DNA of 17,080 nt from an uncultured archaeon (GCA_964587725.1 CAZPLO010000001.1:236377-253456), one strand, 5' to 3'; numbered from the stretch's first letter, positions 5,644 to 17,080 are shown. A program made the numbers and translations. The notes: generated by a model not told the origin, from the sequence alone.

Positions 5644-5710
5644 TTTTTTAAATAATCCAAACTTTCCTTTAAACTGTTTACAGGTTTGTTTAAAAGGTTT
5701 AAAGTACTGG

Positions 5711-5799
5711 TGTAGTGCCTAACTTTGTCTTGGGTATGGGCTGTAGTGCCTAACCACAGGATATGTGGTGCCTACCCCCGCAGATATGTAGTGCCTAAC
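5711..5799 (+). repeat. Cluster of four direct repeats of TGT(A/G)GTGCCTA(A/C)C
   Basis: Copies start at 5711, 5742, 5764 (degenerate TGTGGTGCCTACC) and 5787; spacings are 31, 22 and 23 nt. Confidence 0.9.
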
Positions 5800-5858
5800 C
5801 ACCCATGGGGGTGTGCCGCATACTCTGGTTTTACTGTGCCCCCCCGGGGTGCATATCC

Positions 5859-5916
5859 TTGATGTGGCGGACCTTTGGTCCGACACGTGTCCGAACCGTT
5901 GGTTCGGTCACATCAA
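5859..5916. other. Multi-branched palindromic element
   Basis: Outer TTGATGTG(G)/(T)CACATCAA encloses CGGACC-TTT-GGTCCG, the palindrome ACACGTGT and CCGAACC-GTT-GGTTCGG, with no unassigned bases. Confidence 0.8.
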
Positions 5917-5937
5917 CCCTTTTGTTAAAACGGTTGT

Positions 5938-5950
5938 TGTAGTGCCTAAC
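5938..5950 (+). repeat. TGTAGTGCCTAAC repeat copy
   Basis: Exact 13-bp match to the copies at 5711, 5742 and 5787. Confidence 0.9.
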
Positions 5951-5973
5951 CCTGGGTGTCTGCCCCCAACCAC

Positions 5974-6783
5974 TCACCCTACTTTCACCCGGCCGCATAC
6001 CTTCTTAAGCACTGCTATGGCGCTTAAGCACGCCAGATACGAGGTTTTGGGGTTGGTGGGTGACGGAACGTTGGATGTTGTTGTCGTGAGTTCGCCGAAG
6101 GGGCCTTTGGCGGTTATGGTGTGGGTGTTGGTTTCCGCGGCGGGGTCGGCTATTATCCTGACCGTGGCGGGCTTGCCTGCTGCGATGGAGGCGATAGCTG
6201 AGACGTTGATGTTGCGTTGGAACAGTTTAACGGCGTCTCCCGCGCCGCCTTCGAAGACAACAGTCGGCTCCGACACAGCTGAAACATCAACCCCCCTATC
6301 CCGGAGGTATGGTATCCCCTTCAAACCGGCAGGTGGCTTGGTGGTGGTGAGGGTTACTTCTTCGACGCCTGCCACGGAAGCCGCCAGCAACCCGTCCACG
6401 CCAGCTAACGCCCCGGACGGCAGATAAAGGGTGGCTGAACCACTTTCGGCGGCATCTTTCACGGCGTCCATCACCACCTCATCCAACAATGCCCCCACGC
6501 TCATCACCAATAAGTCTTTCCCAGCAGTCAGAACCTTAGTGGCGTATTCTCTGACGGCGTCCTGACTCGCAGCCTCCACAACGAAGTCGCAGGAATCGAG
6601 GAGTTCATCGAATGAGGGGGCTACTGCAGGGGGGGTTTGTAGGCTGACGGCCAGTTTCTCCGCTTTCTCACCATCCACGTCGTACACTGAGGCCAGTTCC
6701 CCCCTTATTTCCCCGGAGTCGAAGGCTTCGGCTATGGTTGTGCCCATGGCGCCGCAGCCGATTAAGCCAAACCGGGGGGTCAT
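5974..6783 (-). CDS. nadX: L-aspartate dehydrogenase (de novo NAD biosynthesis)
   Basis: GLIGCGAMG Rossmann motif, VEAASQDAV, MSVGAL, PSGALAGVD, NINVS, NTH and NPKTSYLA. Start moved to ATG 6783 (GAGGGG RBS; avoids overlap with the radical SAM gene); 269 aa. Confidence 0.92.
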   Translation of the reverse strand: MTPRFGLIGCGAMGTTIAEAFDSGEIRGELASVYDVDGEKAEKLAVSLQTPPAVAPSFDELLDSCDFVVEAASQDAVREYATKVLTAGKDLLVMSVGALLDEVVMDAVKDAAESGSATLYLPSGALAGVDGLLAASVAGVEEVTLTTTKPPAGLKGIPYLRDRGVDVSAVSEPTVVFEGGAGDAVKLFQRNINVSAIASIAAGKPATVRIIADPAAETNTHTITAKGPFGELTTTTSNVPSPTNPKTSYLACLSAIAVLKKVCGRVKVG

Positions 6784-16114: not shown

Positions 16115-16312
16115 TTAAATCTCCCAGGAAGACTTGTTTTTGTTCAAAATAGTCCTGCCCCGCTTAATCTTCTCCACGTCCTGAGGCCGCCTCACATCAA
16201 TGCCGTCATGGAACTCGCGGTTCAGATGCTGCGCCAGCTCCACCGCACCCATCCTCAGCTTGTTGGCTGTTATGAAACGCAGCTCAGGGTAAGTCCACAT
16301 CCGGTCCGCCAT
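16115..16312 (-). CDS. Small basic protein, possible Myb/HTH-like DNA-binding fold
   Basis: 65 aa from ATG 16312, about 25 nt after TTATTTAA; WTxxE...ELAxxLNxxF...R pattern. The fold assignment is tentative. Confidence 0.65.
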   Translation of the reverse strand: MADRMWTYPELRFITANKLRMGAVELAQHLNREFHDGIDVRRPQDVEKIKRGRTILNKNKSSWEI

Positions 16313-16433
16313 TGACAAAAACATAGGATGAAAGGGTTAAATAATGAATAACGCCGACCCAACCCCCATTCAACAAAACCAGAAACTATTGAAAAATTAA
16401 ACCAAAAAATAACAATATTTTCAAAAAGAAACC

Positions 16434-16457
16434 GAACAATGTTTTTAAACAGTGTTC
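16434..16457 (+). promoter_or_regulatory. TATA box embedded in an imperfect inverted repeat
   Basis: GAACA-A-TGTTT-TT-AAACA-G-TGTTC; the TTTTAAA lies about 22 nt upstream of ATG 16471. Confidence 0.5.
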
Positions 16458-16470
16458 ACAATATTAAACT

Positions 16471-16638
16471 ATGCGTCCCGTATGCGACTTCTGCAACACC
16501 AAACTGGAAGACAAACTCTCGAAAATCATAGACCACCTTAAAACCTGCGAGGCAGCCCCATTCCACGAAATAGAAGACGAACTCGAGAAGTCCATGGCGG
16601 TCCAAACCCACATCCTAAAGAAACTACGCGAAGACTAA
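16471..16638 (+). CDS. 55-aa C2HC zinc-finger protein (not in the ORF track)
   Basis: Hand-translated MRPVCDFCNTKLEDKLSKIIDHLKTCEAAPFHEIEDELEKSMAVQTHILKKLRED*; C-x2-C-x13-H-x3-C; TATA box upstream and T-rich tract after the stop. Confidence 0.75.
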   Translation: MRPVCDFCNTKLEDKLSKIIDHLKTCEAAPFHEIEDELEKSMAVQTHILKKLRED

Positions 16639-16772
16639 ATTCTTTTATTCCCCACTTACCTACTAATATAAGCGTTTTTCAAGTCTGTATAGCCCATCAC
16701 ATCCACATTTGAGAATGCAACCACAACCATGCACCAGCTCCATGCTGGGAAGGAGCCTTCACGTTCACCTAT

Positions 16773-16950
16773 GGGCCTGTAGCCTAGCGGATAAGGCGAC
16801 AGCCTTCTAAGAACCGTCACGCCGGTTCACGGGCGAAGCGGGTGCCACAGCCGAGACATTCGTCTCACCTGTGGAACACACTACCAAGCCGCCCGCACAC
16901 TATGGTTCGAAGGAAGCTGTAGATCGTGGGTTCGAATCCCACCAGGCCCG
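16773..16950 (+). tRNA. tRNA-Arg(TCT) with canonical 37/38 intron; exons 16773-16809 and 16915-16950; CCA not encoded
   Basis: Acceptor GGGCCTG/CAGGCCC+G, D-arm GCCT..AGGC, anticodon stem ACAGC/GCTGT with TCT at 16806-16808, T-arm GTGGG-TTCGAAT-CCCAC. Confidence 0.95.
16810..16914 (+). other. 105-nt BHB tRNA intron
   Basis: Strict bulge-helix-bulge: ACAGC-CTTC-TA^A-GAACC pairs with GGTTC-GAAG-GA^A-GCTGT. Confidence 0.92.
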
Positions 16951-16963
16951 AAAACACAGTCTA

Positions 16964-17044
16964 AGATCGTGGGTTCGAACGCCGTCCCCAAAGGGGACGG
17001 CGCGCCAAAACAGCCCCGCTGTTTTGTGCGTCCCACCAGGCCCG
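16964..17044 (+). repeat. Duplicated tRNA-Arg 3' end interrupted by a 51-nt double-hairpin insert
   Basis: AGATCGTGGGTTCGAA (16964-16979) plus TCCCACCAGGCCCG (17031-17044) together equal tRNA 16921-16950 exactly; the insert is 16980-17030. Confidence 0.92.
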
Positions 17045-17080
17045 AATTGTTGAATGTATGTCAGACCAGCTTTATTTATT

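Follow-up and report, generated by a model that had tools for sequence, protein, structure and literature searches.

Why should a tRNA gene be followed by a second copy of its own 3' end, and why should that copy be split in the T-loop by two hairpins? The question is raised by a locus at the end of the window, which is the whole stretch of DNA analysed here, namely the final 17,080 nt of contig C1 in a metagenome bin of an uncultured archaeon (48 contigs, 1.56 Mb, about 57% G+C; completeness 92%, contamination 1%; G000 below). The features of the locus are as follows.

16773..16950, plus strand: tRNA-Arg(UCU) gene (Rfam RF00005, 56.3 bits, E 3e-11), with G73 at 16950.
16773-16809, 16810-16914 and 16915-16950, plus strand: exon 1, intron (105 nt) and exon 2 of this gene.
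16921..16952, plus strand: repeat copy 1, comprising variable loop, T-arm, acceptor 3' strand, discriminator and 2 extra bases; it belongs to the working tRNA.
16953..16963, plus strand: non-repeated spacer of 11 nt (13 nt counting from the tRNA end).
16964..16979, plus strand: left half of the orphan copy, with variable loop, T-stem 5' strand and T-loop 54-59; 16/16 identity to 16921-16936.
16980..17002, plus strand: hairpin 1, folding into a perfect 10-bp stem with a 3-nt loop.
17003..17030, plus strand: hairpin 2, 12 bp with one bulged T, abutting hairpin 1; 45.6 bits to model R1 (see below).
17031..17046, plus strand: right half of the orphan copy, with T-loop 60, T-stem 3' strand, acceptor 3' strand, discriminator and 2 bases; 16/16 identity to 16937-16952.
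17047..17080, plus strand: original downstream flank, T-rich at its end, running into contig C18.

The tRNA-Arg gene was called by aragorn -i (anticodon tct, intron (38,105)); default ARAGORN, which was run without the intron option, called zero tRNAs within the window. By hand reading of the sequence, the intron lies at position 37/38 in a textbook bulge-helix-bulge (BHB) motif, with two 3-nt bulges, a central helix of 4 bp and flanking helices. Behind the gene, the block of 32 nt at 16921-16952 recurs with zero mismatches as 16964-16979 plus 17031-17046 (16 + 16 nt). This orphan copy lacks tRNA positions 1-43, and the intact tRNA-Arg lies 13 nt upstream. Its halves are separated by an insert of 51 nt (16980-17030) between T-loop positions 59 and 60; the junction position is unambiguous (not shiftable), no target duplication flanks the insert, and the insert is made entirely of the two hairpins. 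An earlier description of this build, made from the sequence alone (the sequence-only reading), was correct in every detail checked, the exact repeat 13 nt past the tRNA measuring 32 nt against the 30 nt given there. Its remark that there is no good BHB at the insert was upheld by hand: where the central helix would be, 3 of 4 pairs can form, two of them wobble, next to a U-U mismatch, and an inner helix is lacking. The apparent echo that it saw in the spacer, of the anticodon arm, is also present, as 10 matching bases with a 3-nt gap.

When folded, 16951-17046 reached -43.6 kcal/mol, compared with -28.1 +/- 3.7 in 200 shuffles (z -4.2), none of which was as good, and in the minimum free energy fold of the orphan copy the T-stem is closed over both hairpins. 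Hairpin 1 has no further copy in G000 by BLAST; hairpin 2 is identical at 31/34 bases to a copy behind tRNA-Phe on contig C10. On the downstream side, C1 stops 34 nt past the orphan copy, and its final 55 nt are the opening 55 nt of C18. A mobility gene to the right of the window had been suggested as a thing to look for; C18 opens instead with a serine hydroxymethyltransferase (SHMT) gene, which is a housekeeping gene. The nearest named relative of this SHMT gene is in a bin labelled Candidatus Altiarchaeota (75% identity), and the taxon label rests on that one match.

The duplication of tRNA ends is recurrent in G000. Among 26 tRNAs predicted by aragorn, the last 13 nt (up to 1 mismatch) were repeated within 400 nt downstream in 11 and upstream in none (0/26), while the first 13 nt were repeated upstream in 4/26 and downstream in 0/26. 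Since a copy with up to 1 mismatch within 400 nt downstream was found for 11 of 3000 random 13-mers of G000, chance is excluded as the source of the tRNA 3' repeats. The copies stop at the mature tRNA ends or within 2-3 nt of them, and their other edge is in the T-loop or the D-loop. Elsewhere in G000, distant copies of tRNA ends were represented only by chance matches in coding DNA and by similarities between isoacceptors. The sequence-only reading had staked itself on such recurrence, and the scan of all tRNA loci bears it out: four orphan copies in G000 hold T-loop double hairpins, and the structure is not unique, since related inserts exist in G000 and in its relatives.

In type B orphans (Arg, Phe, Asp, Ser-UGA), the T-stem 5' strand is kept and a double hairpin lies in the T-loop; all orphans of G000 that bear the T-stem 5' strand hold the double hairpin (4/4). 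At the tRNA-Phe locus on C10, for example, the tRNA is followed by a 6-nt spacer, the T-stem 5' strand with six T-loop bases, two hairpins, the remainder of the T-arm, and the acceptor 3' strand, and the BLAST match to hairpin 2 is located 44 nt behind the tRNA. Type A orphans (Val, Gly twice, Ser-GGA twice, and others) start within the T-loop and are preceded by other hairpin modules, in some cases together with a segment complementary to the orphan copy. Units behind different tRNAs on C3 and C16 share 90% identity over 81 nt, each with its own tRNA's tail. Therefore, the inserts appear to move or to be exchanged, with the tail coming from the host locus. Orphan copies are mostly identical to their own tRNA, though tRNA-Arg varies between genomes. 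In several cases, among them tRNA-Gly, Met, and Ser(GGA), oligo-T lies behind the last copy instead of behind the tRNA.

Twelve loci of related genomes were fetched by homology to tRNA-Arg, not to the hairpins. The tRNA was found by aragorn in 11 of them, 7 of which have a terminal copy, and the inserts at tRNA-Arg differ in kind between genera. In G001, a genome of the same genus, the same tRNA-Arg and its type B orphan copy are 2.9 kb apart, and the cargo between them encodes an uncharacterised 491-aa protein and a SoFic-type Fic protein (PADLOC E 9e-99). In G007 and G013, the tRNA and the orphan copy enclose 0.6 kb with a 154-aa ORF and 1.1 kb with an Mrr_N protein, respectively; no integrase was found in the three cargo islets. 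Relative to SHMT and the upstream gene, the tRNA-Arg cassette has opposite orientations in G000 and G001, and in G001 a tRNA 5' fragment, split in the D-loop, is present directly upstream of the gene. Since cargo is held between the copies in G001, G007, and G013, the tRNA and its orphan tail are, judged by sequence organisation, the frame of small variable islets, an apparent integration signature at tRNA genes. The window is such a frame with almost nothing inside, the spacer at 16953-16963 being the sole DNA where relatives hold cargo. The earlier objection that attachment-site (att) pairs usually enclose kilobases falls away, as the pairs of relatives enclose 0.6-2.9 kb.

To follow hairpin 2 across genomes, a covariance model (R1) was built from 12 copies, in which 9/12 pairs show compensatory change. 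In G000, the model found 4 sites, all in type B orphan T-loops; at E up to 0.001 it had 1-18 hits per genome in 29/61 related genomes, among them 17/20 genomes of the same family, and it was found in 0/12 genomes of two other families of the class. In relatives (29/61 genomes with hits), hairpin 2 is mostly present at tRNA genes. The contexts were read at 30 loci in relatives, and among the sampled loci the T-loop site is shared by double hairpins at at least 12 loci in at least 9 genomes. Orphan T-loops with hairpins are present behind intact tRNAs in G002, G005, G010, G012, G018, and G004, with two identical tandem units of 101 nt in G018 and tandem units in G004, and they are present far from their own tRNA in G001 and G007. 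Hairpins are also located in orphan D-loops of 5' copies (G012, G013, G027), inside long predicted anticodon-loop introns (G022, G015), and at loci with no tRNA in sight (e.g. G008, G011, G016, G020). In G012, a near-full second copy of tRNA-Gly has its D-loop and its T-loop each occupied by double hairpins. The closeness to tRNAs varies: 7/18 hairpin hits of G022 are within 150 nt of a detected tRNA, with 2 more in a predicted intron, and in the complete genome G026, 0/14 hits are within 1 kb of the 22 tRNAs detected with Rfam.

The copy at tRNA-Phe of G000 and that at tRNA-Gly of G012 are identical at 52/56 bases, although they come from different genera and different tRNAs. The opposite strand of hairpin 1 of the Phe unit scores 44 bits with the hairpin-2 model; therefore, the Phe hairpins form a mirror pair. 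A single base is bulged in every hairpin unit, and in mirror pairs the bulges lie on opposite sides. A strict regular expression (T-loop, then a CGC...GCG frame) found the Arg and Phe units alone, the Asp and Ser units starting differently, and a naive scan of G000 for two adjacent hairpins returned 518 pairs that were mostly spurious. The left flanks of the inserts all end in A (TTCGAA, TTCAAA, GGTTA, and others), with no fixed word established. Whether the double hairpin always lies in the loop of a larger stem was also considered, and the result was null (5.83 bp vs 5.83 bp in the control). Single cases in G008, G003, G011, and G016 look like hairpins in the loop of a larger stem. A segment upstream of the orphan copy pairs with it over at least 7 bp in 9/32 units; this pairing is weak, since the longest helix averaged 6.1 bp compared with 5.6 bp when permuted, and the observed value was just below the maximum of 200 permutations (6.16).

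The units fold alike on both strands. Among 26 units, the fold energy was lower for the sense strand in 14 (Wilcoxon p 0.64), and the units have 79 G-U pairs in sense compared with 92 in antisense. Equal folding of both strands, the mirror pairs, and the conserved stem sequence suggest that the hairpins resemble DNA palindromes that may be recognised by a protein, and an RNA-only structure has no support from strand folding. For the same reason, the idea that the orphan copy serves as an alternative 3' strand affecting tRNA processing, which had been raised in the sequence-only reading, found no support.

As to enzymes, one tyrosine recombinase gene was found in G000 (PF00589, 488 aa), 1.2 kb from another tRNA on C27; it adjoins a HATPase/DUF4325 pair, and the island continues over contigs C45 and C23. 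No relatives of this recombinase were found in viral contigs, the 96-nt unit had no match in phage records by blastn, and no integrase was found in or beside any unit examined. No HUH/Y1 transposase and no reverse transcriptase were found in the 92%-complete G000. Y1 genes are present in 9/29 hairpin-bearing genomes and in 12/32 hairpin-free genomes (61 in total). Therefore, since no Y1 gene was found in G000 and Y1 is unlinked to the hairpins over the 61 genomes, mobilisation of the REP/RAYT type is not supported, nor, as judged from Y1, is that of the IS200/IS605 type, and the HUH partner suggested earlier is likewise without support. In their form, the units do resemble the bacterial REP/BIME repeats that go with RAYT (Y1) proteins: they are short, GC-clamped, imperfect palindromes with one bulged base giving polarity, they are multi-copy at low to moderate number and frequently arranged as inverted mirror pairs, and they lie in non-coding DNA with compensatory changes in the stems. 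They differ in that co-occurrence with Y1 is lacking, that tRNA loops and flanks are strongly preferred, that the host is an archaeon, and that the end motifs are unlike the GTAG and CGTC tags named in the REP literature (PMC3733652).

Overall, the stretch is most likely a DNA-level footprint of mobile DNA and not a working gene, and no host function is proposed for the orphan copy. The best explanation, which is put forward tentatively and at somewhat less than an even chance, is a cargo-less tRNA-end duplication of the integrase type, the orphan T-loop of which houses a lineage-wide palindromic double-hairpin repeat. In a first step, a site-specific recombination of the integrase type in the end of tRNA-Arg would have created the pair of direct repeats. 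The proximal copy would complete the working tRNA, and the distal orphan would keep the original flank and the T-rich terminator; between the copies, 11-13 nt would be left in G000, where the equivalent pairs of relatives enclose small cargo islets. In a second step, the recurrence of which is seen at many loci and the mechanism of which is conjectural, the orphan T-loop would have come to hold a member of the palindromic repeat family. The double hairpins would sit only in harmless tRNA loops, namely orphan T-loops, orphan D-loops, and long anticodon-loop introns. The conservation of sequence and pairing, the mirror pairs, and the alike folding on both strands suggest that the hairpin unit is recognised by a protein on DNA, and that it may spread or be exchanged between tRNA loci. 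The earlier proposal of a minimal tRNA-targeting element or scar goes in the right direction, since duplicated tRNA ends with hairpin inserts form a recurring family; the HUH/Y1 partner suggested along with it is not supported.

A close known counterpart is found in the attL/attR duplications of tRNA gene ends that go with integration by tyrosine recombinases (SSV-type, pTN3-type, and bacterial islands). The identity blocks of attachment sites stop at or near mature tRNA ends. Here, too, a tRNA segment is directly repeated up to the mature end, with the gene completed by the proximal copy and the former flank retained beside the distal one; in relatives, cargo including a defence gene lies between the copies, an inversion has taken place at the tRNA locus, and 3' as well as 5' parts of tRNAs serve. 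The pTN3 integrase has a site at tRNA positions 2-44 and inverts DNA between tRNA genes (PMC5495485). The likeness ends where foreign DNA with a recombinase gene would be expected between the repeats: 11-13 nt are found here and integrase-free cargo in relatives, with no integrase in or beside the units. Two further differences from att duplications are that a single recombinase gene stands against 11 affected tRNAs out of 26, and that hairpins split the orphan T-loop.

Further observations count against the favoured explanation. The orphan tails are mostly still identical to their tRNAs, where old dead scars would differ; therefore, recent events, gene conversion, or selection are called for. 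The double hairpin in 4/4 of the T-stem-bearing orphans is odd for a later, independent insertion, and the pairing of upstream segments with the orphan copy is unpredicted by an attachment-site scar. No excision or empty-site variant was found in the contigs of four metagenome runs, although contigs drop rare variants. The reading as a dead scar is strained by the tail identity, the constant place in the T-loop, and the hairpins in all four T-stem-bearing orphans. Therefore, three rivals stay alive: the orphan arm as an active attachment site, as a relic of intron loss, or as part of a co-transcribed RNA.

In the first of these, which is considered unlikely but deserves to be kept, the orphan T-arm with its hairpins would itself do the work in a miniature non-autonomous integrative unit; when the DNA is single-stranded or extruded, it would fold into a three-way junction that the T-stem closes. 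A recombinase supplied in trans would use this mimic of the T-arm as its attachment site, and the unit would integrate, duplicate in tandem, and gain cargo, in analogy to integron attC sites and folded phage dif-like sites. Since attC sites have extrahelical bases, the single bulged base of each hairpin unit and the mirror arrangement recall them. The same T-loop place at no fewer than 12 loci in no fewer than 9 genomes, the hairpins in every T-stem-bearing orphan of G000, the orphan copies kept identical to the tRNA, the two exact 101-nt tandem units of G018 and the tandem units of G004, the variable size of the cargo between tRNA and unit, and the conservation of the stem sequence across genera are all in line with such a unit. 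However, no excised or empty form was present in the contigs of the four runs, no recombinase is linked to the units, and one enzyme would need to accept many different tRNA ends. Hairpins are also located in D-loops, in introns, and away from tRNAs, as in G026, and neither a match to phage records nor a counterpart of the integrase in viral contigs was found.

An equally low probability is given to a reading in which the double hairpin is an archaeal mobile palindrome that targets the single-stranded T-, D-, and anticodon loops of tRNA genes. A hairpin landing beside a splice motif would persist as part of an intron, and elsewhere it would survive only in orphan gene ends; the tRNA-end duplications would be a by-product of, or a rescue from, this hairpin traffic. 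If this were true, the gain of a tRNA intron would be caught in the act, and a vehicle for the arrival of archaeal tRNA introns would be at hand. The route by which introns arrive is described as open in a 2026 preprint on Asgard tRNA introns (10.64898/2026.10.13.758758).

A relic of intron loss is rather improbable. According to this scheme, the T-loop once held an old double-hairpin intron, an intron-free 3' part was written in upstream through RNA-templated or cDNA-mediated repair or conversion, and the old exon was left behind as a relic; 5' copies ending in the D-loop would be the mirror case. The boundaries of the pieces fit this scheme, since D-loop and T-loop delimit the orphan pieces and the intact copy runs to the mature tRNA ends. 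The same hairpin modules are present inside predicted anticodon-loop introns, which would be real introns; a working tRNA with a D-loop intron exists in G000 (tRNA-Leu on C9); and the near-full tRNA-Gly copy of G012 has double hairpins in both loops. By hand reading, in most T-loop copies the end of hairpin 2 could pair with T-loop 54-57, leaving two 3-nt bulges at the junctions, so that a relaxed splice motif is conceivable in most copies other than that of the window. On the other hand, the window copy has the U-U mismatch in its would-be central helix and no inner helix, and the D-loop case of G012 is without any BHB. No reverse transcriptase was found in the 92%-complete bin, the intact copy is not followed by CCA, and tRNA-Arg retains its 105-nt intron, so that the replacement would have been confined to the last 30 nt. 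In G000, a search for tRNAs whose sole copy has a split T-loop turned up nothing but one false positive in a coding sequence; only about 28 tRNAs with an intact T-arm are detectable in this bin, and some tRNAs are possibly hidden or unassembled. Cargo genes between tRNA and orphan copy are not expected either. The units share with non-canonical archaeal BHB introns the insertion in a tRNA loop at 59/60, the modules inside predicted anticodon-loop introns of relatives, and a lineage with D-loop introns, but the interrupted copy is not a gene, it has no proper BHB, and the hairpins are alike on both strands.

Less probable again is a co-transcribed functional RNA, in which a single transcript would run from the tRNA through the unit to the T-rich stretch that follows the orphan copy. 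In it, the orphan 3' strand and T-stem would then provide a tRNA-like end for a small structured RNA; alternatively, the orphan strand would compete for the 5' acceptor strand and so modulate tRNA maturation, or the orphan 3' strand and T-stem would act as a terminator hairpin. T-rich stretches do follow the last copy and not the tRNA at several loci, a model of a 274-nt transcript pairs the tRNA 5' acceptor strand with the orphan 3' strand (z -7.8), 9/12 pairs of hairpin 2 show compensatory changes, and the identity of orphan and tRNA is kept across genomes. Small RNAs linked to tRNAs are known elsewhere. Nevertheless, as expected of DNA palindromes, there is no strand bias in fold energy or in G-U pairs, and a search of Rfam 15 with the window and 10 sister loci (E up to 5) returned tRNA matches only, with no match to another RNA family. 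From genus to genus, one and the same tRNA has inserts of different kinds, protein-coding cargo can intervene between tRNA and unit, and the alternative acceptor pairing would presumably harm tRNA maturation.

The weakest rival, an assembly artefact in which the tRNA 3' end of one strain variant was joined to that of another at a contig end, has in its favour that the structure lies 34 nt from the end of C1 in a 48-contig metagenome bin, and is very unlikely because contigs from four runs carry 16300-17080 whole. In each of these runs, Logan contigs cover this range in one contig with no joints, with 0 differences in three runs and 2 in the fourth, and three runs extend beyond 17080. The four runs belong to one microbial-mat study, and one of them is possibly the source sample of the bin. 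These independent k=31 contigs hold the identical structure and read through into its flanks, and they support the junctions, against the artefact that the sequence-only reading named as fatal. Away from contig ends, the same build recurs behind tRNA-Phe, Asp, and Ser, and 8 other genomes have it too; the break of C1 corresponds to a branching after 17080 in a single run (X1).

The double hairpins have a further parallel outside the archaea. The term 'double-hairpin elements' is already in use in the literature. Mitochondrial hairpin elements are small, mobile-looking inverted repeats that form hairpins, double hairpins, and more elaborate structures, and they spread into intergenic DNA, rRNA genes, and the vicinity of tRNA genes; a fixed site in a duplicated T-loop is not reported in the portion of that work consulted (PMC2800124). 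These elements are organellar, however, and the likeness is one of description, with no sequence relation expected. Overall, the unit combines known kinds of DNA, namely attachment-site duplications and hairpin repeats of REP-like or mitochondrial style. No published description of tRNA-end duplications with T-loop hairpins was found for archaea or for Altiarchaeota, in a literature search in which subscription journals were thinly covered.

Mobile DNA classically lands in transfer RNA genes, and in archaea these genes are well known for unusual interruptions; in this one uncultured order, the two meet. The locus in the window is the visible tip of a lineage-wide phenomenon, in which nearly half of the detectable tRNA genes of G000 are flanked by orphan copies of their own ends, and a conserved palindromic double hairpin occupies tRNA loops wherever this is harmless. 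If the hairpins are mobile and loop-seeking, they would offer a natural system for the study of insertions into tRNA genes, possibly including introns; if the units are folded attachment sites, they would represent a new form of integrase substrate.

Split tRNA genes offer a last comparison. Split and tri-split tRNA genes are present in Nanoarchaeum and Caldivirga, and a free-standing 3' piece of a tRNA is common to them and to the locus described here. In contrast to them, this piece has no complementary leader and no BHB at the junction, and it duplicates part of an intact neighbour. As a candidate, the 3' half of a split tRNA was rejected: the spacer has no complement to a 5'-half trailer, and no partner was found in G000 by BLAST. 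Units of this kind also confuse tRNA finders and could be misread as split or intron-bearing tRNAs. They break assemblies as well, and several contigs of the bin end at tRNAs.

A hairpin module stands at the start of the 105-nt intron in tRNA-Arg(UCU) and is also present on both sides of tRNA-Gly(GCC) in the same Altiarchaeota genome (G000), close to the tRNA on contig C22, and behind tRNAs in two relatives, G018 and G002. Therefore, the introns and the tRNA flanks have building blocks in common. The features of G000 concerned here and below are as follows (C, contig of G000):

Window 16810-16914: tRNA-Arg(UCU) intron, with the hairpin module at its start
C1:144690-144736: copy of the intron module in front of tRNA-Gly(GCC)
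C1:145008 onward: copy of the intron module behind tRNA-Gly(GCC)
C1:144784: 5'-end copy of tRNA-Gly(GCC)
C2:41281: 5'-end copy of tRNA-Val(UAC)
C27:12574: 5'-end copy of the C27 tRNA
Window 5700-6000 (minus strand): a 13-14-nt word (GGTTAGGCACTACA-like) that occurs five times at intervals, next to a hairpin module
C9:41549-41730: tRNA-Leu with two introns, in the D-loop and the anticodon loop
Window 17026-17080: contig overlap, equal to C18:1-55
C27:12695 to contig end, C45, then C23:1-500: island of about 8.7 kb, beginning at a tRNA

Duplication is also seen at the 5' end of tRNAs. The copies of the Gly, Val, and C27 tRNAs span tRNA positions 1 to 15-23, with the end point in the D-loop, and the intact genes follow 120-150 nt downstream. 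Orphan copies, the extra pieces of a tRNA end beside an intact gene, flank both tRNA-Gly(GCC) and tRNA-Val(UAC) on both sides, and the upstream units of tRNA-Gly and the C27 tRNA terminate in a short stretch that repeats the acceptor 3' strand. In the same-genus relative G001, the tRNA-Arg cassette (L014 / L124, G001:C3:487800-491500) is inverted with respect to the serine hydroxymethyltransferase gene and the upstream gene when compared with G000; it includes a 5' tRNA fragment interrupted in the D-loop, as well as an islet of 2.9 kb that carries a Fic gene of the SoFic type.

Four consecutive hairpins occupy an orphan T-loop in G010 (L139, G010:C96), and in G030 (L145, G030:C21) a double hairpin is embedded within another hairpin module, of the type common to units behind two different tRNAs on C3 and C16. 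Because of these two arrangements, nested or repeated insertion is suggested. The module at window 5700-6000 shows 79% identity over 73 nt with the trailer of tRNA-Ser(UGA) on C9; an Rfam search gave no match here.

The tRNA-Leu on C9 was not picked up by aragorn or by the Rfam search. Only about 28 intact T-arms were found in this bin, which is 92% complete; some of its tRNAs may therefore be hidden or missing from the assembly. A tRNA marks the start or the end of several contigs. Since exact 55-nt overlaps occur at 13 junctions between contigs of the bin, the contigs can be chained. The island runs through such overlaps from C27 via C45 as far as a tRNA on C23 in convergent orientation. It encodes a tyrosine recombinase of 488 aa that has a zinc ribbon, together with one HATPase_c and one DUF4325 protein.
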